A stretch of 32,000 bases of DNA from Pyrolobus fumarii 1A (lineage in GTDB: Archaea > Thermoproteota > Thermoprotei_A > Sulfolobales > Pyrodictiaceae): positions 540,001 through 572,000 of the forward strand of contig NC_015931.1 in the NCBI RefSeq assembly GCF_000223395.1, written 5' to 3'. Below are positions 2,522 through 29,067 of the stretch, in pieces. A model generated the notes under the pieces. That model searched no databases and had not been told where the DNA came from. It saw only the letters and a list, made by a program, of their open reading frames with translations. The position numbers were made by a program, and so were the translations under genes. The stretch's first letter is position 1; each line of letters opens with the position of its first letter.

Positions 2522-3703
2522 GTGTTGCGCGTCGCGCGTGAAGTTGTGAAGCTCGAGCCTGGCAGCGTGTTGTGGTTGTCTGGGCCGGTGCGCGTTCGCA
2601 TCGTGGAGGGTGGCGTAGTTGCTGGTGGTGTTAGGGTTGGTGAGGGTTTTGAGTTTCTAGTGCAGGCCGAGAGGGGTGCCAGCATCTACGCTATAGACGA
2701 GTCTGCTACTGTTGAGCTTGTCGTGGGCGCCGGGGGTAGCTACCGTGTTGAGAAGGGTGGTGAGGCTGTTGGCTTGGCGCGTGAGTGGCTGAGGGTCGCG
2801 GAGGGCGTCGCGGAGATTGGTGCGAAGCTTGTGGCTGTGCTCGCGCCCGTGGAGTCCGGGAAGTCGACTCTATCCCTCTGGCTCGCAAATCGCCTTGGTG
2901 GTTGCTACGCTAGCCTGGATGCCGGGCAGAATGAGCTCGGAACCCCCGGCTATTTCTCGGCTACACCGATCGAGCACGTCGCCTTGTCCCCGAGAGACCT
3001 GGGTGCCAAGTGGGCGTGGCTGGTGGGGTGTAACGCGCCCGAGCATTGCCACTGGCCCGCTATGGCTGCCGCCGCGTCGCTAGCAAGGTTCACGCGCAGT
3101 GCATGCAAGGCGGTCGTGCTCGACACGGATGGTTTCGTGGATAGCGCTGGCCTGGTGTACAAGGCGTCTCTCCTCGAGGTGCTACGCCCTGACGCGGCAA
3201 TTGTGATACGCAAGGGGCCTTGGATGAAGCTGCAGCAGATCGCGCGCATCTACTCGGATACCGTGCTGGAGGCTCCACCGGTGCCACCAAGCCTCGTTAG
3301 GAGTAGGTCGCGTGCCGAGAGGAGAGCCTACCGCGAGAGGATGTACAGGATGCTATTCCAGAACGCGGAGCGCGTCACGCTCAGCCTAGAGGATGTGGTG
3401 CTGCTGAACAGCGAGGTTGCGGGGTTCCCACAGCTCCCGGTGCAGGAGGATGCCTACCTCGCACCGGATGGCACGTTGAGGCTTGCTCAGAGGCAGCAGC
3501 TCCAAGGGTTACTCTCCAGCATAGTACTGCAGGAGGGATACGAGGTACCAGCGCTCCTAGAGCACCTCAGCGTACGATCCAAGAGCGTGACGCTACGCGT
3601 AGCATGGAAGCCTGAGGGTAAACCAGTGGCCGTGAAGCTCGGGTTCACGAGGCTCGTCGGATGGAGAGAAGAGAGGCTCCCACTACGCCCACACGCCGCG
3701 TAA
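2522..3703 (+). CDS. Clp1/Grc3-family P-loop polynucleotide 5'-kinase homolog
   Basis: Walker A is LAPVESGKSTL (GKS codons at 2858-2866). It is followed by the LDAGQNELGTPG (Clp1 DxGQ-type) motif and a VVLDTDGFV Walker B. The layout is three domains: an N-terminal beta domain, the P-loop, and a C-terminal domain. Confidence 0.75.
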   Translation: MLRVAREVVKLEPGSVLWLSGPVRVRIVEGGVVAGGVRVGEGFEFLVQAERGASIYAIDESATVELVVGAGGSYRVEKGGEAVGLAREWLRVAEGVAEIGAKLVAVLAPVESGKSTLSLWLANRLGGCYASLDAGQNELGTPGYFSATPIEHVALSPRDLGAKWAWLVGCNAPEHCHWPAMAAAASLARFTRSACKAVVLDTDGFVDSAGLVYKASLLEVLRPDAAIVIRKGPWMKLQQIARIYSDTVLEAPPVPPSLVRSRSRAERRAYRERMYRMLFQNAERVTLSLEDVVLLNSEVAGFPQLPVQEDAYLAPDGTLRLAQRQQLQGLLSSIVLQEGYEVPALLEHLSVRSKSVTLRVAWKPEGKPVAVKLGFTRLVGWREERLPLRPHAA

Positions 3704-3859: not shown

Positions 3860-4453
3860 GTGTGGGTGACGACGCTGAACTCTGTAAGGTTGCTCGAACA
3901 GCCATTGCCGAGGCCTCGGCGAGACCCCACGGGCTATGCTAGTGCTCGAGTCCTAGAGGCCCTACTCGAGGCTCTCCTGGCTCTAAGGTTCCTCGAGGAG
4001 GGTTACACCAGGAACGCTGCAGGCAAGGCGTTCCAGGCGTGGCGGGCTCTCACAGGAGCACTGCTAGCCCTCGAGAGGGACAGGATACTGGAGAGTCTGA
4101 GGACCGAGGAGGAGAGAAGATGGCTAGAGGAGAAGGGTATACCACGAGTGCCCTCGTCAAGGCTCAAGCCGTTGGCAAGGCTAGTCGAAGAAGCAGGGTA
4201 CAAAGACTACACGCATTACACGAGCACAGCGCTCGACCTCCACGACTATCAGTACCACGGGCCGGACCCCTCCGGCGACATGAGCAAATACCCTGATCCC
4301 GAAGAAGCGGCAAGAGACGTTACATCGATCCTGGCCAAACTGACTAGGATTGTAGAAGAGCATGCCAAGCCAAAGTTAGAGCAAGCGGGAAAATGGACAC
4401 GTGAACATAGAGAAGCGTTGGAGATCCTAAAGCAGAAGCTGAGACGAGCCTAG
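3860..4453 (+). CDS. PaREP1-family (HEPN-like) protein
   Basis: The segments LEEGYTRNAAGKAFQAWRALTGALLAL ... TALDLHDYQYHG ... ILAKLTRIVEEH match the PaREP1 helix pattern. GTG start. Confidence 0.65.
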   Translation: MWVTTLNSVRLLEQPLPRPRRDPTGYASARVLEALLEALLALRFLEEGYTRNAAGKAFQAWRALTGALLALERDRILESLRTEEERRWLEEKGIPRVPSSRLKPLARLVEEAGYKDYTHYTSTALDLHDYQYHGPDPSGDMSKYPDPEEAARDVTSILAKLTRIVEEHAKPKLEQAGKWTREHREALEILKQKLRRA

Positions 4454-4595: not shown

Positions 4596-5015
4596 TTACA
4601 CGTTCCTAGCAGGATTCTCAACATCGTCCCTCCTTACCGGTTCGGCTATACGAATTACTCCGTACTTCGCTCTTTCCTTAGGACAGAGTTCCGAGAAAAT
4701 CACTATCCTGACTCGCCAACCTCCAGCTATAGCCAGCCACTCATGTGGAGCTATGCTAACCCTGGTTAAGTTTAATATTAGAACCTTTTGGGAGGACATC
4801 AGTGATAAAGAGCTTCTGCATTCCTCCCCTCTGAGCACATTCAAATACATTTCTCTAGCCTCGGGTAAAATCTCATTGAGGATATCTATGGCCCGCCTAT
4901 AGACGCTGTTTTCGGGACACGAGCACATCCATACTATCATTTGTTTTTGTTGTAGTAGCTTGCGAATGGCTAGATATCTCTCCAGGAGCATGTCGGGTGA
5001 CGTTACTCTCGCCAT
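4596..5015 (-). CDS. Hypothetical protein in an AT-rich patch; possibly the distal part of a frameshifted gene
   Basis: The frame is open from 5084. The first ATG is at 5015 (MARVTSPDMLLERYLAIRKLLQQ...). It overlaps the 4897-5175 frame. No family was recognised. Confidence 0.3.
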   Translation of the reverse strand: MARVTSPDMLLERYLAIRKLLQQKQMIVWMCSCPENSVYRRAIDILNEILPEAREMYLNVLRGEECRSSLSLMSSQKVLILNLTRVSIAPHEWLAIAGGWRVRIVIFSELCPKERAKYGVIRIAEPVRRDDVENPARNV

Positions 5016-5484: not shown

Positions 5485-6048
5485 ATGCTCTTAGCCGAGT
5501 TGCGTGCTTGGCAATTGTGGTGTAGTATAGTGGTCACTATTACCATTCCGCGGAGAGTTGTAGAGGCCATACGTAAACGTGGGCATGTGGATGTTGAGGC
5601 TTTCGTACTGGAGGCTATAGAGCAGACGCTAGGCCTCGACCCCCAGGAGGAGCTTGAAACACGCTTCTCTATCGCCGAGCATATGCTCAGGAGGGCTCGC
5701 GAAGAGCTTGAAGGGGGCGATCCTGTCCAGGCCTCGGAGAAGCTGTACAAGGCTGTCGAAGAGTGTATCAAGATATTAGCGTGCCTGAATGGTCTGGAGG
5801 AGTGCGATATAGCCAGGAGAGAGGGAGCGTGGTGGTCGAAGCTGCTTGGCAGAGCTGCACGTAGACTATCGCTGGCCCTAGGCGAGCCTCTAATAGTGGA
5901 GGCTTGGAGCCATGCCTATGATCTCCATGTTCACGGTTTCCACGAGCACGCTTACACGGTAGAGGAGGTTAGGGAGTCCCTACCGCTAGTCGAGAAGCTA
6001 GTGGAATACACGAGAAGGGCGTTAGAGGATACCAAGACGCGAAGATGA
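5485..6048 (+). CDS. RHH-like N-terminus fused to a PaREP1 (HEPN-like) domain; likely true start GTG 5530
   Basis: VVTITIPRRVVEAIRKRGHVDVEAFVLEAIEQTLGLDP, followed by GDPVQASEKLYKAVEECIKILA ... HAYDLHVHGFHEH. It is closely paralogous to 20240-20746. Confidence 0.7.
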   Translation: MLLAELRAWQLWCSIVVTITIPRRVVEAIRKRGHVDVEAFVLEAIEQTLGLDPQEELETRFSIAEHMLRRAREELEGGDPVQASEKLYKAVEECIKILACLNGLEECDIARREGAWWSKLLGRAARRLSLALGEPLIVEAWSHAYDLHVHGFHEHAYTVEEVRESLPLVEKLVEYTRRALEDTKTRR

Positions 6049-6704: not shown

Positions 6705-7220
6705 TTGATATACTGGTCGGTGCCTACAGGGTTGGCATCTATTACTGTTAGTATCCCACGCAGCTTGGCTGAGCGTGCACGGAAGGAGGCTGAGAAGCTT
6801 GGCCTTGGGCTCGAGGAGTACATCATCGAGCTGCTGGCAGAGGGGCTAGATCCCAAGGATCGCGCACAGGAGTACGTTGAAGCTGCCCTTGAGCTGTTGG
6901 GGCAGGCGCGTGAGGAACTGGAACGAGGCGATATCCGCCAGGCTGCAGAGAAGCTCTGGGGCGCTACTGCGCTCGCAATAAAGGCTTATGCCTGGCTGAG
7001 AGACGGGAGAAGACTCGCGAGCCACGGCGAGCTGTGGGAGTACTCGAAAAGGCTCATTGATGAGCTTGGAGAGTGGGTGTTTGACGCGTGGATGGCTGCT
7101 AATGGGATGCATACGTGTTTCTATGAGGGGTGGTGTACGCGGGGCCATGTAGAGAGGGCTCTAAAGAGGATAGAGAGGCTGGTCCGGGAAGTCGCCACGC
7201 GGGTTAAGGCAGGGAGATAA
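6705..7220 (+). CDS. RHH-like N-terminus fused to a PaREP1 (HEPN-like) domain; start TTG 6705, GTG 6720 or TTG 6732
   Basis: ITVSIPRSLAERARKEAEKLGLGLEEYIIELLAEGLDP, followed by GDIRQAAEKLWGATALAIKAYAWLRDGRRLASHGELWEY ... GMHTCFYEG. Confidence 0.7.
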   Translation: MIYWSVPTGLASITVSIPRSLAERARKEAEKLGLGLEEYIIELLAEGLDPKDRAQEYVEAALELLGQAREELERGDIRQAAEKLWGATALAIKAYAWLRDGRRLASHGELWEYSKRLIDELGEWVFDAWMAANGMHTCFYEGWCTRGHVERALKRIERLVREVATRVKAGR

Positions 7221-18599: not shown

Positions 18600-18940
18600 A
18601 CTGGGGCAACACCACTCAATCAAGCGTGACGCGCGCCACTAGGCCGGCGCGACCCGCGAATAACCCCAGGGGTTATCCTAGACCGTGTACACGGCGGGCC
18701 GCTGGGTGGGGACTACACACCCTTACCCGAAGCCCCCGGAGGGGCGGCGGGGGCAGTGACGAGAGTGGCCAGGGCCGACTGCGGCCCGCCGCCTCTACGG
18801 ATAATACACCCACACGAGGCAAGCCAAAGGAGAATCATCTCGTATGTTCCAGCCTACTAGCCTACCCGTTCCAACACTTAGCCTGGCTGGTTAGGCGGGG
18901 CCTCTGCCAGCCATCCTCTCGTCACTGTTCAGCTAACAGC
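18600..18940. other. ORF-poor, hairpin-dense GC-rich block; candidate structured RNA or long 3' UTR
   Basis: Contains an 11-bp long-range pairing (18692-18702 with 18781-18791), a 17-nt palindrome (18660-18676) and a 12-nt palindrome (18683-18694). The only ORFs here are Arg/Pro-rich shadows. Confidence 0.25.
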
Positions 18941-20125
18941 TTACTCTTCACCGGCCCAGGCTGGCCACGGGTAGAGCCGCTCCCAATCAGCGTTTATCCT
19001 CTCTACGTGCTCCTCCCCGAGTCTATTAGGCGGTATCATAGCGTTGCGTAGCATGTGGTCGGCGAGCGTGATTGCCACCATAGCCTCGGCCACCGCCACG
19101 GCGCGCACCACTAGAGCGGGGTCGTGGCGGCCCTTCACGCTTATCGTGTCCGGCCTGTTCTCGCACAGGTTCCACGTTTCGATGGGCCTTGGTATGCTGC
19201 TGGTCGGCTTGAAGGCTATGCGCAGGCGTATCGGGGTGCCAACGCTCAGCCCGCCAAGCATACCCCCGTGAGCGGGGCCAACCGGCCTAGGCTGGCCGTT
19301 GACGAGTCTTATCGGGTCTCTCGCCTCGCTACCCTTCATCCTCGCGAGGCGAAAACCGAGGCCAACCTCGAAGCCCACTGCACCCGGTATACTCATCAAC
19401 GCCTTCGCGAGGTCCGCCTTGAGTTTATCGAAGACCGGGTCGCCTAGGCCTGGAGGCACCCCGAACGCCACCACCTCCACTACGCCGCCTAGGCTGTCGC
19501 CCTCCGCCCTAGCCTCCTCGATCACCCTCATCACCTCCTGCTCTAGACGCCTATCGTGGACCCTCACCGGGCTATGCCTGGCAGCCAGAAACTCCTCAAC
19601 ACTAGGCTCCGCACGTGGATCCACGAGCTCTAAGCCGCCGATCTCGGCAAGCCTCCCGTAGACAGTCAAGCCGGCCGCGAGGAGCAGCTTCTTGGCCACG
19701 GCTCCAGCCGCAACCCTCCCTACAGTCTCCCTGCCAGACGCCCTCCCGCCGCCCCGGTAGTCCCAGTTCTCCCACCCGTACTTCAGGACGTAGGCCAGGT
19801 CCGCGTGACCAGGGCGCGGCTTGCAACGCACCTCCTCGTAGGGCCTCGAGTCCACATCCCGATTCCACACCACAATCGCTATGGGGTGCCCGGTGGTCCG
19901 CCCCTCGAACACACCCGAGAGTATCTCTGGCTTGTCGGGCTCCCTCCTCGCCGTCGCCCACCGGTGCCCAGGCCTACGCAAGAGAAGCTCCTTGTACACG
20001 TCGCGCTCAGAGAGAGGCATCCCAGCCGGCACACCATCGACAACCACGCCAAGCGCACTGCCGTGGCTCTCGCCGAAGGTCGTCACGCGAAAGAGAAGCC
20101 CAAAGCTACTACCAGCTGACAACAC
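18941..20125 (-). CDS. aroC: Chorismate synthase
   Basis: LFRVTTFGESHG at the N-terminus, plus GGRASGRETVGRVAAGAVAKK and KPTSSI motifs. Confidence 0.9.
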   Translation of the reverse strand: MLSAGSSFGLLFRVTTFGESHGSALGVVVDGVPAGMPLSERDVYKELLLRRPGHRWATARREPDKPEILSGVFEGRTTGHPIAIVVWNRDVDSRPYEEVRCKPRPGHADLAYVLKYGWENWDYRGGGRASGRETVGRVAAGAVAKKLLLAAGLTVYGRLAEIGGLELVDPRAEPSVEEFLAARHSPVRVHDRRLEQEVMRVIEEARAEGDSLGGVVEVVAFGVPPGLGDPVFDKLKADLAKALMSIPGAVGFEVGLGFRLARMKGSEARDPIRLVNGQPRPVGPAHGGMLGGLSVGTPIRLRIAFKPTSSIPRPIETWNLCENRPDTISVKGRHDPALVVRAVAVAEAMVAITLADHMLRNAMIPPNRLGEEHVERINADWERLYPWPAWAGEE

Positions 20126-20239: not shown

Positions 20240-20746
20240 TTGAGCGTCACTATAAGCATCCCGAGGCGCCTCTACGAGGAGGCGCGCAAGAAGGGCCTTG
20301 ATATAGAGTCGAGGATTGTCGAGCTTCTGGCTAGGGAGCTGGGCCTAGACCCCGAGGTGGAGGCGAGCCTGCACCTGGAGCTCGCAGAGAAGTACCTACT
20401 AGAGGCTAAGAAGCTCATAGAGGAGGGCGACGCTGTGCAGGCTAGTGAGAAGCTCTACAAAGTTGCCGAGGAATGCATCAAGTCCATGGCCGAGGCTCTC
20501 GGGTTAGAGGAGAGTAGGGAAGCGCAGAGAAGGGGCAGATGGACCCTAGGCTTGTTGGATAACGCCGCAGGGAGGCTCGCAGAGATTGTGGATAGGCGCG
20601 TCTACGATGACTGGGATCACGCCTATTTCTTGCACGTCGAGGGTTTCCATGAAGCCGGGCTTGGCATCGAGCAGGTAAAGAAGAGGGCGAAGTACGTCGA
20701 GGAGCTCCTTGAGATAGCTAAGAGGGTTGTTGGGGGGAAACGGTGA
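20240..20746 (+). CDS. RHH-like N-terminus fused to a PaREP1 (HEPN-like) domain
   Basis: SVTISIPRRLYEEARKKGLDIESRIVELLARELGLDP, followed by GDAVQASEKLYKVAEECIKSMA ... HAYFLHVEGFHEA. The A/T box GATAATAT lies about 35-40 nt upstream of TTG 20240. Confidence 0.75.
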   Translation: MSVTISIPRRLYEEARKKGLDIESRIVELLARELGLDPEVEASLHLELAEKYLLEAKKLIEEGDAVQASEKLYKVAEECIKSMAEALGLEESREAQRRGRWTLGLLDNAAGRLAEIVDRRVYDDWDHAYFLHVEGFHEAGLGIEQVKKRAKYVEELLEIAKRVVGGKR

Positions 20747-20974: not shown

Positions 20975-21997
20975 ATGAGGGTCTCGCGGTGGGTGTTGGC
21001 GCTTCTGTTCTTCGGGCTTACTAGTCTCCTCGCTGACGTGTGCTATGAGGGGTTTCGGGGTATACTCGGGCCGCTTGCCTTCGAGAAGGGTGGCTCTTGG
21101 ACAGATCTGGGCCTTGTGCTCGCCGAGGCTGAGCTTATCAACTGGGGTTTGAGGCTCCCAGCCGCCATAATCGCCGATAGGCTCGCCGCGTGGTGGAGCC
21201 TGACGATACTCGGGTATGCGCTGACCCCGGTTGGCGTCGCGGTCGCACTAGCAGGTGGACTTGGCGGTGTTGCACTGGGTGTGGCACTAGAGAGGCTTGG
21301 CAAGACTCTGCGTGCTCCCGCGCGAGACGCGCTGCTCTCGGGGCTTAGTGGCAGGAGGGGCCTCGTCTACGCCGTCCACGAGGTGATGGACCAGGTTGGG
21401 GCTGTTACCGGCCCACTACTAGCCTACTATGCGATCGCGACGGGCAGAGTATGGTTGATACTAGTCCCTGGGATGGCGAGCGTCGCCGCGATACTCGCAG
21501 CCAGAGCAGTCTACCCGGGAGCACCGTCGCCTCGCGGACACCCCCAGCTGTCGCTCCACGCTAGGTTCGCACTACTAGGCGCCACGTCGCTCCTACTGCC
21601 CCACCCCGTTGTGATCGCAGCAGCTGCCGCCGCTGCAACCGGGGATGCGGGTGCAGCACCACTAGCCTATACCCTCGCGATGCTCGTGGATGCTGTTGTC
21701 GCGCTCCCCCTGGGCAAACTCTACGATACGCTAGGCTCGGCTAGCCTCGCAACCGCCCCAATAGCAGGGATAGCCGCGGGCGTGCTACTCGCCACGGGGC
21801 ACCCGATAGCGGCTAGCGCCGCGGCCGGCATCGCACTCGCAGCCTACGAGACAGTGTACCGGGCGTACGTGGCAGACCATGCACCCGAGAGAGCAGCTGG
21901 CTTCGGGGCACTCGCACTCGGCATCGGCGTAGGCCAGGCAACATCGGCAATCATCTACTCGCTGCTAGCATTAATAGCCTATCCGAGCCCAGGCTAG
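20975..21997 (+). CDS. MFS-like multi-pass transporter (ORF open from 20900)
   Basis: About 10-12 hydrophobic segments, with a loop motif ERLGKTLRAPARDALLS between TM2 and TM3. Its last 23 nt are duplicated at 22807-22829. Confidence 0.6.
   Translation: MRVSRWVLALLFFGLTSLLADVCYEGFRGILGPLAFEKGGSWTDLGLVLAEAELINWGLRLPAAIIADRLAAWWSLTILGYALTPVGVAVALAGGLGGVALGVALERLGKTLRAPARDALLSGLSGRRGLVYAVHEVMDQVGAVTGPLLAYYAIATGRVWLILVPGMASVAAILAARAVYPGAPSPRGHPQLSLHARFALLGATSLLLPHPVVIAAAAAAATGDAGAAPLAYTLAMLVDAVVALPLGKLYDTLGSASLATAPIAGIAAGVLLATGHPIAASAAAGIALAAYETVYRAYVADHAPERAAGFGALALGIGVGQATSAIIYSLLALIAYPSPG
21973..21995 (+). repeat. Left copy of a 23-nt direct repeat (AATAGCCTATCCGAGCCCAGGCT)
   Basis: It matches 22807-22829 at 22 of 23 positions and comprises the last codons of the transporter gene. 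Confidence 0.85.
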
Positions 21998-22020
21998 ACA
22001 CGCTCCTCGAGCCGCGAGCG

Positions 22021-22434
22021 TCACCTCAGCGCGGGGTAGAGGCTTGCAAGCTCCTCGTCGAACGTCGCTATATAGCTAAGGTTGTACACCTTAGCGGCGA
22101 CTATGCTAGTGGCGTCGGTGAAGCTTATGCGCGGCGTGTGCCTCGCGAAGAGGCTCCAAGCCTCGTTGAACATATCGATGGTAACGGGGATAATGCGGAA
22201 AGCCTTCTTCTCGAAGAAGAGGGCGCCAGCCTTCAACGCAGCCTCTCTCCCACCCCTCATAGCCATATACGTGAGCACCTCGTCGATTATATAGTCGGTC
22301 ACGTGGGGGATCCCGTAGGCGCCACGTAGTATATCCGAGAGTAGGCGCACCGCACGCCGGTGTAGAGAGTCACTCTTGTTCAAAGCCGCTATGATTACAC
22401 TGCTGTCCACTAGCACGCCTCCCACCATAGACAA
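22021..22434 (-). CDS. vapC: PIN-domain ribonuclease toxin VapC
   Basis: Motifs VLVDSSVIIAAL, TDYIIDEV, SFTDATSIVAAK and IATFD provide the conserved PIN acidic residues. The likely start is ATG 22428. Confidence 0.85.
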   Translation of the reverse strand: MSMVGGVLVDSSVIIAALNKSDSLHRRAVRLLSDILRGAYGIPHVTDYIIDEVLTYMAMRGGREAALKAGALFFEKKAFRIIPVTIDMFNEAWSLFARHTPRISFTDATSIVAAKVYNLSYIATFDEELASLYPALR

Positions 22435-22690
22435 CCTTATCCACCTCCGCGTGAGACTCGCTCACCCTAAGGTCAACGCTCAGCTCCTCCAACAGCCGCT
22501 CCGGGTTCTCCATAGGCCTCCATGCGCCAAGCTCCTCGAGAAACTCGCTCCTCCTGCGCCACGCAAGTCTCAACGCAGCTTCGATGATATCCTGAAACCT
22601 CGGCCTCGAGCCCAGCTCGACAGCTACAGCGGCCTGCAGCCTCTCCAGCATCTCCCGAGCCTCACGACTAATCTTAACCGTTGTAACCAC
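22370..22690 (-). CDS. vapB: Ribbon-helix-helix (CopG-like) antitoxin VapB
   Basis: VVTTVKISREAREMLERLQAAVAVELGSRPRFQDIIEAALRLAW. The start is GTG 22690 or 22699, with an A/T box about 45 nt upstream. The 3' end overlaps vapC by about 59-65 nt. Confidence 0.6.
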   Translation of the reverse strand: MVTTVKISREAREMLERLQAAVAVELGSRPRFQDIIEAALRLAWRRRSEFLEELGAWRPMENPERLLEELSVDLRVSESHAEVDKVVYGGRRASGQQCNHSGFEQE

Positions 22691-22806
22691 GGGGGCCACG
22701 AAACCCGCCCGTATACCCGGTATACCCGGAGACACCCGTATAACAATGCCACCCGGGTAGGTGATGTAATCCACCAGACGCGAAGGCAGGGATACGTAAT
22801 GGCTCG

Positions 22807-22829
22807 AATAGCTTATCCGAGCCCAGGCT
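22807..22829 (+). repeat. Right copy of the 23-nt direct repeat (AATAGCTTATCCGAGCCCAGGCT)
   Basis: It has one mismatch to 21973-21995 and lies upstream of the vapBC promoter region. Confidence 0.85.
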
Positions 22830-22914
22830 GTCACATCTTACTAGGCGAGATTGTATACTAGTATCATGCCCGTCTTAGTAGGGTGTCCCTATCACCCTGA
22901 GAGAGTTAGACAAG

Positions 22915-23169
22915 GTGACCAGGAACTACCAGGTTACTATACCGGCGGTTGTGAGGTCGAAAGCTGGCATCCGTGAGGGTGACCTCGTAGAGGTGTGGTT
23001 CGATGAGGAGGAAGGCGTGATCAAGATTGCTCCTGTGAGACGCAAGAGGTTGACAATCATGCTTGGGAGGAGGGTAACTGTTGAGGAGATCGAGGAGGGT
23101 TATACCACCTGCATTGGTTGTCCACGAGTATGTCCTGGTTATGGTCAGGAAGGCTATACCTTACCTTAG
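22915..23169 (+). CDS. AbrB/SpoVT-domain (VapB/MazE-like) protein with no adjacent toxin gene
   Basis: NYQVTIPAVVRSKAGIREGDLVEVWFDEEEGVIKIAP is a swapped-hairpin AbrB fold signature. It has an unusual Cys-containing tail, CIGCPRVCPG. Confidence 0.7.
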   Translation: MTRNYQVTIPAVVRSKAGIREGDLVEVWFDEEEGVIKIAPVRRKRLTIMLGRRVTVEEIEEGYTTCIGCPRVCPGYGQEGYTLP

Positions 23170-23518
23170 CGGCTCGGCCCGGGCGAAGCCAGGCATCCAC
23201 ACTGCGCCGTGAACTAGACGGCGCTCGGCTAGGCCCGAAGGTCCTCACCGCCAGATAACCGGACTCTGGCGTCAACCCCTAAATCGCTCCAAGAGCGGCA
23301 GACGGGTGACGATGTACGGCGCTCGCGGTTAACCCGGGGCAGGCAAACGGAGAGGGGTTCGGAGTGACTAGGTACAAGCCGTCAAACCACCATGGTGAGG
23401 ATGTGGGTGACTGGGCTTGCATGCTACAGACTGAGGACTAGGGGTGTGTACCCGAAGCCTCCTACCTCCTTTATCGCGTGTAGCGCTGTGCCTATTGGTG
23501 TGGAGAAACTCGTGGGGG
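23170..23518. other. ORF-poor GC-rich structured block between convergent genes; candidate ncRNA
   Basis: Contains a hairpin (23204-23224), a 10-nt direct repeat ACGGCGCTCG (23218-23227 and 23316-23325), and an 8-bp long-range pairing (23242-23249 with 23394-23401). Confidence 0.25.
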
Positions 23519-24061
23519 TTAGGCTGGGTCGGGTCTGGGCAGCGTGACGCCCTTCTGTCCCTGGTACTTGCCGTGGTACGGCTTGGCTACTGGCGACGTT
23601 GTCTTCACGAATACTAGGTGTAGGAAGCGTTGGCCGGGGTATACTCTCACCGGGAACTCGCTGCCAATCAGCTCGATGACAAGCTGGCCCTTGAACCCTG
23701 CGTCGACGACTGTGGGTGGAATATAGAGCCCGAACCTGGCGAAGGTGCTCCTAACGTTGACTAGCCCCACGACGTCATCCGGCAGCTCTATCCACTCCAG
23801 CGTATGCGCCAGGACGTGCTCGTGCGGGTAGATGACGAAGCCGTGGTCTGGGTCAACCTCCTCGCACCTGTACCACTCGTCTATGTCGGACGGCGGGTTC
23901 TTCGTGTCTAGTATCCTGGTGAGCGTGCGCCTCATCCTGCAGAAGATGTTGCCCAGGCGGAGGTCAACGCCATTCTCCCTTACGATGCTGGGCTCGAAGG
24001 GCTCGATGACCAGCCTCTTGAGCTCCACTAGGTGTAGGATATCACGGTCGGATAGTATCAC
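23519..24061 (-). CDS. dcd: dCTP deaminase (dUTPase superfamily)
   Basis: MILSDRDI at the N-terminus, plus NGVDLRLG, VRSTFARFGL and GFKGQLVIEL motifs. 180 aa. Confidence 0.9.
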   Translation of the reverse strand: MILSDRDILHLVELKRLVIEPFEPSIVRENGVDLRLGNIFCRMRRTLTRILDTKNPPSDIDEWYRCEEVDPDHGFVIYPHEHVLAHTLEWIELPDDVVGLVNVRSTFARFGLYIPPTVVDAGFKGQLVIELIGSEFPVRVYPGQRFLHLVFVKTTSPVAKPYHGKYQGQKGVTLPRPDPA

Positions 24062-24204
24062 AGTGCTGCACCCTCAGTGTGTATATCTCCTTGTTACCAG
24101 GTTTAGGAGTTAGGAGGCTCGCAGTACGCGCGAACCCGGAATACACGGGTTATACTCGGAGCCTGCACGTACATGCCCAGGGTGTACACGTAACCGCCCC
24201 AGTG

Positions 24205-24861
24205 TTACCCTGTACACTCCTTCAGCTTCTCGAGCAGCTTCTCAACCGCAGCCTTGCTCTTCACGCCCGGCTTCTCCTCGACACCGCTACTAACGTCGAT
24301 TAGCCACGCGTGCCTCGCAACCAGACATACGTTGTCGGAGTTTACCCCACCCGCGACCCCGAGCCTCTTCACGAGCCTCGCCGCCTCCTCGACAGCCTCG
24401 ACCGGGATGCGGAGGCCGCCATCATACCTCGCTGGGCTGGACTTCGGCGCGTCTATCAGTGTGTATTCTGCTGCCTCCGACACCCTGCTGTAGAACAACG
24501 GGTGTAGCGGCGCCCAGCCGCCAACACCATGGAATAGGACTGGCGCTAGCCTCACTCCGATGTCGCCGAGCATCCGGGCTAGGCTTGCTAGCTCTCTAGG
24601 CTTCCCGAACCAGTGGTACTGGACGACACGGAACACTCCAAGCTTGCCAGCAAGCTCGACGACCTCATCCGGCTCGAGACCGTAGGCTACCAGCACCGGT
24701 GTTGACCTGGAGACCGTGGAGGCCAAGTCAGCAGCCATCTTCGGGTCAAGCACTCGCGGCGATACACGCAGGCCCGTGATGAAACCCAGATAGTCAACCA
24801 GGCCATCAAGCATCTCCACATCCTCTACGCGCGTTATACCACATACCTTCACCTTTGCCAT
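24205..24861 (-). CDS. trpF: Phosphoribosylanthranilate isomerase
   Basis: VKVCGITR at the N-terminus, plus DYLGFI and LIDVSSGVEEKPGVKS motifs. A GGTGG Shine-Dalgarno-like box lies just upstream of the ATG. Confidence 0.85.
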   Translation of the reverse strand: MAKVKVCGITRVEDVEMLDGLVDYLGFITGLRVSPRVLDPKMAADLASTVSRSTPVLVAYGLEPDEVVELAGKLGVFRVVQYHWFGKPRELASLARMLGDIGVRLAPVLFHGVGGWAPLHPLFYSRVSEAAEYTLIDAPKSSPARYDGGLRIPVEAVEEAARLVKRLGVAGGVNSDNVCLVARHAWLIDVSSGVEEKPGVKSKAAVEKLLEKLKECTG

Positions 24862-25146
24862 GATACCACCCGTTAAGGTGGGTGGGAAACGTAGGCCACG
24901 GATGATTAGGTAAGCCGAGGGTAATACGTTTCTATGGCTACCCTGCTCTGGGCCCCAGCATCAACAGCCGAGAGGTGTGTAGGTAGCCGTCGACGGTACC
25001 CGCGGGGCCACCCGGGCATCACATTACACATGCTAGTATCGTCCTCGGGGGTGAACAGCGATTCGAGAACGTGCCTGGAGGCTAGGGAGTGCAAGACCCG
25101 AAAAACACTGGGCGTGGCCCGAGCGCCTCCATATTGCCATGCAGGC

Positions 25147-25818
25147 TTACTCAATGAGCGGCTTGAAGTGTGGTGGATAGACTATCCTCGTGTTTATCTG
25201 TACAATGTCCTCTACTATGGTGTTGCCTCTCACGGTCTTCCTGCGGCGCTCGCCCTTCTCGCGCGGGTGGAACCCTGGCGGGCCGCTTAGCAGCACCTTC
25301 TTCTTCACGCCGCCAGGTATACCCGGGTGCATTGGGAACCCACTGTTGTCGCTCCCACCGCGTATCTCTAGCTCGACGCCAGGCAGGCCGACAATGCTAC
25401 CGTCGAACTTGTCGCCTATCTTTAGGCCGATTAGCCTCTCTGCGGCTGCACCCTTCAGGTGTATCTGCCAGGCTTTCGCGCGGAAAGCCTCCGCCTCGGC
25501 CTCCTCAGCGCCAACCTTCTCGCCGAGAAGCTCGAGGCTTATCAGCACCTGATCCTCGGGTAAGTTATTGTCGAGCTGTGCACGGCACGTTATGTTGATC
25601 TTCTTGTCCTCTTGGCGGAAGCGGAGCGTGATTATGCCTAGCTCATTCGCCTTTATCTTCTTCAAGAGGTTCGGGTTGACCTTGCAGATTGGTAGCTTCT
25701 CCCTCTCCTTCTCCTCCTGCGTCCACTGGATATCCTCGACTCCCTTGACCTTCACCTTCACCACTGGGTCGTCCGCCTTCGCGTGTGGGTCTCCAATCAC
25801 CACTCGGAACTCGGGCAC
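25147..25818 (-). CDS. rps6e: Ribosomal protein S6e (long form)
   Basis: Motifs LKIGDKFDG, LEIRGGSDNSGFPM, GERRRKTVRGNTIVEDIVQIN. Confidence 0.9.
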   Translation of the reverse strand: MPEFRVVIGDPHAKADDPVVKVKVKGVEDIQWTQEEKEREKLPICKVNPNLLKKIKANELGIITLRFRQEDKKINITCRAQLDNNLPEDQVLISLELLGEKVGAEEAEAEAFRAKAWQIHLKGAAAERLIGLKIGDKFDGSIVGLPGVELEIRGGSDNSGFPMHPGIPGGVKKKVLLSGPPGFHPREKGERRRKTVRGNTIVEDIVQINTRIVYPPHFKPLIE

Positions 25819-28143: not shown

Positions 28144-28373
28144 CCAACCAAGAGCTAGACTAGCATACCCGGGCTGAACACTCTTTGAGGTTCACTACTG
28201 CCGGGAGCCCCTCAGCAAAACCGGGATCACAAGGGGCACAGCAACGCAACCTATAGCCGTAGCCGGGGGGATCCCCGCCTCCCAGACAACATACCTCAAC
28301 ACGCGCTCCTCGCCATACCCCGTGGACGCCTTGCATCCACGCCCATTATCATCGCCGCTGGCCGCTCTTGACT

Positions 28374-28384
28374 ATATTATTATC
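28374..28384 (+). promoter_or_regulatory. TATA-box candidate for the second vapBC operon
   Basis: TATATTATTAT lies about 40 nt upstream of ATG 28421. Confidence 0.45.
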
Positions 28385-28420
28385 CTGCCCACCTCTGCTC
28401 TCCCACATGGGCGTGTGGGT

Positions 28421-28654
28421 ATGAGACACGGGGATGTAATCGTGGTTGATGAGCGGGGGCGTGTCACGCTCCCCGCTTGGCTGCGCAAGAGGCTCGGGTT
28501 GAGGCCCGGCTCCAAGCTCGAGGTTAGGATCGAAGAGGGACGTGTGGTGCTAGTCCCTGTGCGGAGGATTAGGGCACGAGACTTGCTGGGCATAGCTGGA
28601 CCTGAAGACGTGGATATAGAGGAGGTTGAGAGTGCTCTCGGTGATACTAGTTGA
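28421..28654 (+). CDS. vapB: AbrB/SpoVT-type antitoxin VapB
   Basis: VIVVDERGRVTLPAWLRKRLGLRPGSKLEVRIEEGRVVLVP. The stop TGA (28652-28654) overlaps the vapC start. Confidence 0.75.
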   Translation: MRHGDVIVVDERGRVTLPAWLRKRLGLRPGSKLEVRIEEGRVVLVPVRRIRARDLLGIAGPEDVDIEEVESALGDTS

Positions 28655-29067
28655 GTGTGCCGAGACGCTTCATAGACTCTAACGTGTTCGTCTATGTGCT
28701 TTCGGGTGACTCTAGGTTCGCCCAAAGGGCGCTAGCGATTCTCGAGGACGCGGAGGACGGCGTCTACGAGGCCTACACGTCCACTCTGGTCGTCTCGCAG
28801 GTGCTCGCTCACCTCGAGAGGAGGGGGAGAAGAGAAGCCATGGAGAAGTTCCTTGAGTATCTCGGCGACTCTCCGATAACCGTTGTAGAGACGAGGCTCG
28901 ACGACTTTACCTATGCGTTGCGACTAGCACGCGAGAACAACCTGTCCTTCCAGAAGCTCTGGGACGACCTGGTGATAGCCTCGCAGATGGTGAGACTCGG
29001 CATAAGAGAGATCTACTCGAACGATACCGACTTCGACCGCATCCCCGGCATCACGAGACTATTCTAG
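28651..29067 (+). CDS. vapC: PIN-domain ribonuclease toxin VapC
   Basis: Motifs FIDSNVFVYVL, STLVVSQV, WDDLVIA and SNDTDFDRIPG. The start is TTG 28651 or GTG 28654, overlapping the vapB stop. Confidence 0.85.
   Translation: MSVPRRFIDSNVFVYVLSGDSRFAQRALAILEDAEDGVYEAYTSTLVVSQVLAHLERRGRREAMEKFLEYLGDSPITVVETRLDDFTYALRLARENNLSFQKLWDDLVIASQMVRLGIREIYSNDTDFDRIPGITRLF

Follow-up and report, generated by a model that had tools for sequence, protein, structure and literature searches.

A 23-bp direct repeat of a transporter gene end brackets a vapBC operon in the archaeon Pyrolobus fumarii

The movement of chromosomal toxin–antitoxin (TA) pairs outside integrons, transposons and plasmids is poorly documented, especially in archaea. 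In Pyrolobus fumarii 1A, a 32,000-nucleotide (nt) stretch of contig NC_015931.1 (positions 540,001 to 572,000; here called the window, with position 1 its first letter) contains a vapBC operon that converges on a gene for a major facilitator superfamily (MFS) transporter, and the last 23 bp of that gene recur on the far side of the operon. How did the operon come to lie between two copies of its neighbour's end? An earlier, sequence-only reading saw in this arrangement the insertion of a stand-alone mini-cassette into the 3′ end of the transporter gene, with an att-like duplication of the kind left by site-specific recombination.

Here, we compare the repeat, the operon and the transporter flank with their counterparts in related genomes. 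The explanation that we favour, with confidence about evenly balanced, is that the vapBC operon relocated into the MFS stop region and that 23 bp of the target were duplicated in the process. The locus presents a concrete and recent-looking junction, combining a candidate 23-bp target duplication with a delimited operon and four other contexts of that operon in sister genomes, and it can be used to test whether TA pairs move by target-duplicating insertion without a recombinase of their own.

The repeat and the operon it brackets

The two copies of the repeat (Table 1), whose coordinates and sequences had been given exactly in the sequence-only reading, are identical at 22 of 23 positions and start 834 nt apart. 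Copy 1 covers the end of the MFS gene and the first base of its stop, as that reading also held; it takes in the final 7 2/3 codons (IAYPSPG) and the T of TAG. Copy 2 is non-coding. They are the sole matches to the 23-mer at three or fewer mismatches in the window, and 100 dinucleotide-preserving shuffles contained none at that stringency (mean 0.00, maximum 0). The edges of the repeat are sharp, the 60-nt flanks of the two copies being dissimilar on both sides (left p 0.79, right p 0.65). Among all exact direct repeats in the window whose copies lie within 2 kb of each other, the 16-nt exact core of the 23-mer is the longest.

The relatives available for comparison are metagenome-assembled genomes (MAGs) of Pyrodictiaceae/Desulfurococcales. 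The closest of them, L001, has the 23-mer once, as the orthologous copy AACAGCCTACCCGAGCCCAGGCT at the 3′ end of its MFS gene. At repeat positions 3 and 10 both P. fumarii copies have T, and L001 and the outgroups have C; the shared T residues indicate that copy 2 was copied from the resident P. fumarii allele.

With the 6 nt on its left side, copy 2 also forms a near-perfect dyad, GGCTCGAATA-GCT-TATCCGAGCC (22801–22823, 9 of 11 pairs). At copy 1 the corresponding positions make only 6 of 11 pairs, and the dyad is missing. The layout of the dyad is like that of a recombinase core site or of a fold-back junction.

The bracketed interval is 811 nt long and vapBC is its only operon; the insert's GC content is 58.2%, against 57.6% for the window. 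The acidic residues D10, D107 and D126 of VapC are invariant across eight sequences, and DE at positions 51–52 is kept within the family. Translation could begin at GTG 22416, ATG 22428 or TTG 22434, the called start being 22416 or 22428. VapB is the syntenic partner of every homologous vapC, at 65–72% amino acid (aa) identity, and has no match in Pfam or NCBIfam; a single-sequence AlphaFold model of it reached a pLDDT of 47, too low for use in judging the ribbon–helix–helix type that the sequence-only reading had given it. Upstream of vapB, GGTATACCGGGTATAC is the predicted palindromic operator of the pair, and the ~60 nt of the spacer beyond the TATA-like box (22747–22806) had no homolog anywhere searched.

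Like canonical type II VapBC systems, this one has a small antitoxin gene that lies upstream of the PIN toxin gene and overlaps it, together with a palindromic operator; unlike them, it has an antitoxin outside all curated families and a frame overlap of 47–65 nt through a lost stop codon. The vapBC label appears justified by the toxin and the architecture, with the toxin side an ordinary VapBC member, as judged from sequence, and the antitoxin best described as unclassified. The sequence-only reading had put the overlap at 59–65 nt and called it unusual. Depending on the vapC start chosen, the vapB frame runs 47 (with the GTG start), 59 or 65 nt into vapC, and such overlaps are a trait of the family: those called in homologs measure 4, 8, 35, 53 and 59 nt. 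The overlap is long here because the vapB stop codon was lost, TAG in the L009 homolog being CAG in P. fumarii, which makes the frame 11 codons longer.

Nothing that would mobilise the operon was seen beside it. The absence of integrase and transposase genes, already remarked on in the sequence-only reading, was borne out by a scan of 37 window open reading frames (ORFs; among them all the long, non-overlapping ones), none of which contained an integrase, transposase or Cas1 domain, and the interval is not bounded by terminal inverted repeats. Rfam and tRNA scans returned nothing at the insertion site, which speaks against a tRNA-type target there.

The operon has other homes. Only eight VapC-like proteins surfaced in a collection of 5.8 billion proteins (58–87% aa identity), and their genes place vapBC in four contexts besides the MFS site: between PfkB and a NifX-like gene, followed by CN-hydrolase and reverse gyrase (L008, 87% aa; L009, 79% aa); between LysRS and a convergent ACT_7 gene (L019 and L023, 78–79% aa); between HEPN-NT and a convergent PDT gene (L021, 79% aa); and beside a protein kinase gene (L027, 58% aa). 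In two MAGs, GCA_054016755.1 and GCA_964553955.1, the MFS site is unoccupied and vapBC stands at the reverse-gyrase locus. In the comparison of the four contexts whose homologs are 77–87% identical, DNA homology sets in at the operator and stops at the LYP codons close to the end of vapC (22030–22727). Since it is confined to the operon, from operator to vapC 3′ end, the operon relocates as a unit, and the description of vapBC as a stand-alone mobile cassette is upheld by its presence in five contexts.

Nucleotide identity of vapBC across these contexts is 72–77%, with 74–77% to genomes that carry it elsewhere, versus 70–73% for the flanking housekeeping genes. This similarity, together with a GC content like that of the surroundings, fits relocation within the lineage, and vapBC gives the picture of an operon long established there that moves as a whole, and not of a recent foreign import. 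In collections of viral contigs, phages and plasmids the cassette had no close relative; all that matched were PIN genes of ~30% identity on haloarchaeal plasmids. No P. fumarii ortholog of the NifX-like neighbour surfaced in a genome scan and a protein search.

Does the 23-mer travel with the operon? At six or fewer mismatches it was absent from the vicinity of vapBC in the homologous loci scanned, a set without L019–L027 (in L019, L021 and L023 only bracketing direct repeats were tested, and L027 lay outside both repeat tests), and ~200 kb of related loci held no copies besides the orthologous MFS ends. The 23-mer is thus best read as DNA of the target gene, the conserved MFS 3′ end, and not as an att site carried by the cassette. 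Target duplication fits it better than a travelling attP because it matches the 3′ end of the target, is not found beside vapBC elsewhere and carries the bases of the resident allele in both copies. The att-like character proposed for the duplication is to that extent undercut, and a site-specific origin is somewhat disfavoured.

In L023 a 14/16 direct repeat, CGCCGC[G/T]CA[A/G]CCTCCT (4036–4051 and 4935–4950), brackets the homologous vapBC at a spacing of 899 nt. The downstream copy falls within the final codons of the convergent ACT_7 gene, parallel to the situation in the window, and p is ~0.025 before correction for six tests.

The transporter 3′ flank in relatives

The DNA behind the MFS gene varies among relatives, and vapBC follows the gene in none of the five related genomes examined (L001, L003, L004, L011 and L013). 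The comparison supports the operon's position at this site as a probable derived insertion, in agreement with the sequence-only reading. MFS homologs are 340–345 aa long and share the same ATG start. In L003 (MFS 73% aa identical) the MFS stop is followed by a conserved element and then by DCD and PRAI, in the order seen in the window; L011 (77% aa) has the same element followed by an Mrr-like gene; and L004 and L013 have a convergent peptidase M28 gene.

L001, with an MFS gene 94% identical in aa and 92.5% in nt, has the same TAG-A after the repeat as the window. From 3 nt past the repeat onwards it contains ~2 kb of unrelated DNA (ATPase_2, PaREP1), which continues to the S6e stop codon, so that L001 7024–9096 replaces window 21999–25147, housekeeping DCD and PRAI included. 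An independent Logan assembly, L002, has an arrangement equal to that of L001, and the replacement is therefore not an assembly artefact. Almost every related genome has different accessory genes in this place, and by this comparison the MFS 3′ flank appears to be a variable hot spot; we flag it as a recombination hot spot in Pyrodictiaceae. The MFS C-terminus varies too, being short (YPSPG*, with TAG-A) in P. fumarii and L001 and 4–5 aa longer in unoccupied relatives.

The conserved element corresponds to L003 7039–7110 and L011 1580–1650, and its consensus forms a long hairpin with three compensatory pairs. It has no Rfam match and may be a terminator or a small RNA. In L003 and L011 it lies directly 3′ of the MFS stop, which makes it a marker of the ancestral right-hand boundary; in P. 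fumarii it lies 1.2 kb downstream of the MFS gene. Relative to the ancestral MFS–DCD arrangement the window has 1186 nt of extra DNA (21998–23183), comprising vapC, vapB, copy 2 and an orphan AbrB gene. The orphan gene is divergent from vapB and missing from all related loci, and its presence in the extra DNA implies at least one other insertion at the MFS site, and so more than one event overall. A stretch next to the conserved element that might be a remnant of the former MFS 3′ end had p = 0.13 and carries no weight here, and matches of the right flank of copy 2 to the old MFS tail or to the start of the conserved element were not significant.

Just before the conserved element, a 17-nt sequence, TAGCGGCTCGGCCCGGG (23167–23183), is matched exactly in the L019 and L023 MAGs (4599–4615 and 3152–3168), ~110 nt upstream of LysRS and close to vapBC (BLAST E 0.001 in ~250 kb).

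At the other end of the insert, the inner left flank (21996–22032) has no homology to other vapBC loci and matches the distal half of the conserved element (23216–23251) at 27 of 36 positions (p ~0.012). According to the sequence-only reading the interval contained exactly one complete unit. It does contain the vapBC operon with its promoter box, but homology to the other loci covers only 22030–22727 and the 37 nt adjoining copy 1 have the look of local DNA, which probably puts the true boundary of the insert at 22032/22033.

Accounts of the operon's arrival

On the explanation that we favour, a self-contained ~0.7-kb operon (TATA box, palindromic operator, antitoxin and PIN toxin) would have relocated as a unit and inserted convergently against the very end of the P. 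fumarii MFS gene. The insertion would have duplicated the last 23 bp of that gene and left the transporter ORF intact, ending at the junction TAG. Duplication and insertion would be one event, and no dedicated recombinase would be needed; the duplication might have arisen by staggered breaks and fill-in, or by short-homology recombination with a circular or linear intermediate. Toxin addiction could then help the insert to persist.

The nearest known pattern is that of restriction–modification (RM) units, which lack mobility genes and are inserted with target duplications that often span stop sites (PMC2853133; Nobusato et al. 2000; Furuta, Abe & Kobayashi 2010). The published screen applied a cut-off of >30 bp, observed duplications of 46 to >400 bp, and passed no archaeal case (PMC2853133). 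Inserts of this type are defined as shorter than 20 kb, with an addiction module and no mobility genes, a description that covers the 811-nt vapBC interval. As in the RM cases, an addiction-type module without a mobility gene is flanked by a direct duplication of its target, the duplication spans the neighbour's stop site and leaves the gene intact, and the repeat is unique in the sequence searched. In contrast to them, the module is a type II TA pair in a hyperthermophilic archaeon, the repeat has a length of 23 bp, and L001 offers the target in single copy but no contiguous empty site. The duplication at the flanks adds a case to a known type of scar, with an archaeal host and TA cargo as the new setting, and falls below the published criteria in its length and in having no empty site; as one locus, it is a useful example rather than a surprise.

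Other mobile systems are less close. Pandey & Gerdes in 2005 reportedly described TA genes as integron cassettes of the Vibrio superintegron. Insertion sequence (IS)-flanked vapBC genes are found in Sulfolobus islandicus (PMC3718332). In both, as here, a minimal TA operon changes location as a unit in variable regions, but the P. fumarii locus has no attC, integron integrase, IS remnants or terminal inverted repeats. It differs from DNA transposons, miniature inverted-repeat transposable elements and casposons in having no terminal inverted repeats and no transposase or Cas1 that was found, and in a duplication of 23 bp as opposed to 2–15 bp.

Several observations weigh against relocation with target duplication. 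L001 shares the TAG-A after copy 1, bases that a simple target duplication assigns to the insert; the 37 nt of seemingly local DNA mean that the insert may not abut copy 1; and the extra DNA extends past copy 2, with the orphan AbrB gene between it and the ancestral downstream element. The duplication, at 23 bp, is shorter than the operational threshold of >30 bp for long target duplication. An empty site in relatives had been named in the sequence-only reading as a check, and L001 supplied a single copy of the 23-mer but with its right flank replaced; no clean empty site, with AATAGCCTATCCGAGCCCAGGCT joined to the present right flank GTCACATC and vapBC missing, was found among the contigs of MFS homologs, the more distant relatives having diverged in the MFS 3′ end. 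No significant bracketing repeats surround vapBC in its other contexts, that of L023 being marginal. A 20-mer scan of the genome collection gave 0 matches and also missed the window's own two copies, which makes it uninformative on the source genome. Finally, the evidence on timing seems to conflict: a match in L001 to the vapC 3′ end, if real, puts vapBC at the MFS site before the split of P. fumarii and L001, at odds with the derived bases common to both repeat copies.

Integration by a tyrosine recombinase is an alternative that we consider unlikely. The 23-mers would then be attL and attR of an element that targets the MFS 3′ end and supplies a replacement stop; the element would have been mobilised in trans or have decayed to its addictive vapBC, and re-use of the site would have given the array of vapBC and AbrB. 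Precedents exist, as archaeal elements integrate in 3′-distal parts of protein genes with the stop supplied by the insert, and tandem re-use of sites is documented (PMC6563490, 2019; She et al. 2002 as cited there). The locus shares with such elements its flanking direct repeats, a gene 3′ end as target, a stop at or after the junction and tandem occupation of the site, and it lies in a hot spot. Both occupied sites, in P. fumarii and L001, have the short YPSPG* tail with TAG-A, and copy 2 with its left flank makes an 8-7-8 dyad like a recombinase core site. However, the archaeal elements are at least 2.6 kb long and encode an integrase by definition (PMC6563490), whereas the interval here is 811 nt with nothing but the operon, and the window ORFs scanned yielded neither an integrase nor part of one. 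For crenarchaeal att sites the reported lengths are 29–69 bp, no element-borne att recurs with the cassette (no 23-mer-like attP lies beside vapBC in the other contexts scanned), and L001 is without a second copy. The P. fumarii-specific T at positions 3 and 10 of both copies points to a copy of the resident target, not to an independent attP.

Two separate events, a form of chance insertion between repeats, also strike us as rather improbable. Here vapBC would have settled beside the MFS gene before the split of P. fumarii and L001, and copy 2 would have arisen later by local duplication or rearrangement, for example together with the AbrB segment. Besides sharing TAG-A, L001 has a 93-nt flank collinear with window 21996–22052 and within it a stretch that matches the vapC 3′ end at 17 of 21 positions (local p ~0.02); no vapC homolog is detectable in the L001 MAG, in keeping with loss; the derived bases of both P. 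fumarii copies point to a duplication after the split; and another diverged local duplicate exists in 21996–22032 versus 23216–23251. The supposed vapC relic is suggestive only, as it overlaps the start of the L001 ATPase gene and loses significance against the whole cassette (p 0.29), and the ends of the global alignment were chosen post hoc. Moreover, the products of two events must happen to bracket exactly one operon, and there is no mechanism by which a 23-nt copy would arrive 834 nt downstream and leave no further trace.

That the 23-mers are alike by chance, or belong to a dispersed genomic repeat with no connection to the cassette, is effectively refuted: an unrelated metagenome contig of 39% GC does contain the 20-nt core, by chance and as the one match in the metagenome scan, but the 23-mer was not a common repeat in any sequence searched, be it the shuffles, the 32 kb of the window, the ~200 kb of related loci or the genome collection (0 matches).

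Returning to relocation with target duplication, a general proposition can be drawn from it that we regard as doubtful. Hyperthermophilic archaea may move minimal TA operons by recombinase-independent insertion that duplicates tens of bp, and this vapBC family may preferentially land tail-to-tail at gene 3′ ends (MFS here; ACT_7 and PDT in relatives, where L023 has its marginal 14/16 bracketing repeat). If true, archaeal TA modules would join bacterial RM systems in the life cycle of insertion with long target duplication.

Annotated features and the rest of the window

The features of the locus are collected in Table 1.

Table 1. Features at and around the vapBC locus, in window coordinates
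Feature	Position	Strand	Evidence or remark
MFS transporter gene, 340 aa	20975–21997	+	Pfam MFS_1, E 7.5e-12; 3′ end is the putative duplication target
Repeat copy 1	21973–21995	+	AATAGCCTATCCGAGCCCAGGCT
Inner left flank	21996–22032		AG of the MFS stop; last 3 codons and stop of vapC
vapC, PIN-domain toxin gene	22021–22434	-	Pfam PIN, E 4.6e-15, 56.7 bits against a cut-off of 23.6
vapB, putative antitoxin gene, 109 aa	22370–22699	-	Conserved partner ORF of homologous vapC genes
Operator-like tandem palindrome	22711–22726	-	GGTATACCGGGTATAC (box GTATACCCGGTATACC); invariant in five aligned loci from four contexts
Spacer, operator to copy 2	22728–22806		First ~19 nt (22728–22746) hold the TATA-like box
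TATA-like box	22738–22746	-	A/T-rich box 8–12 nt upstream of the operator in each aligned locus
Repeat copy 2	22807–22829	+	AATAGCTTATCCGAGCCCAGGCT
Orphan AbrB/MazE-type gene, no toxin partner	22915–23169	+	Pfam MazE_antitoxin, E 1.5e-10; TIGR01439 AbrB
Conserved hairpin-forming element, ~70 nt	23184–23255	+	GAAGCCAGGC...TAGGCCCGAAG; aligned with L003 and L011

Elsewhere in the window there is a second, unrelated vapBC pair, in which an AbrB-type antitoxin gene (28322–28654) and a PIN toxin gene (28651–29067) have the canonical 4-nt overlap; the orphan AbrB protein is 39% identical to this antitoxin. Five PaREP1-family genes are present in the 32 kb (1081–1734 on the minus strand, 3860–4453, 5485–6048, 6705–7220 and 20240–20746), and in L001 another ATPase_2 and PaREP1 module stands exactly at the position that vapBC occupies in P. 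fumarii. A C/D-box small RNA, Rfam sR24, was found at 18901–18954 on the minus strand (39.8 bits, gathering score 36), and its 3′ end overlaps the stop-codon end (18941) of a same-strand chorismate synthase ORF by ~14 nt.

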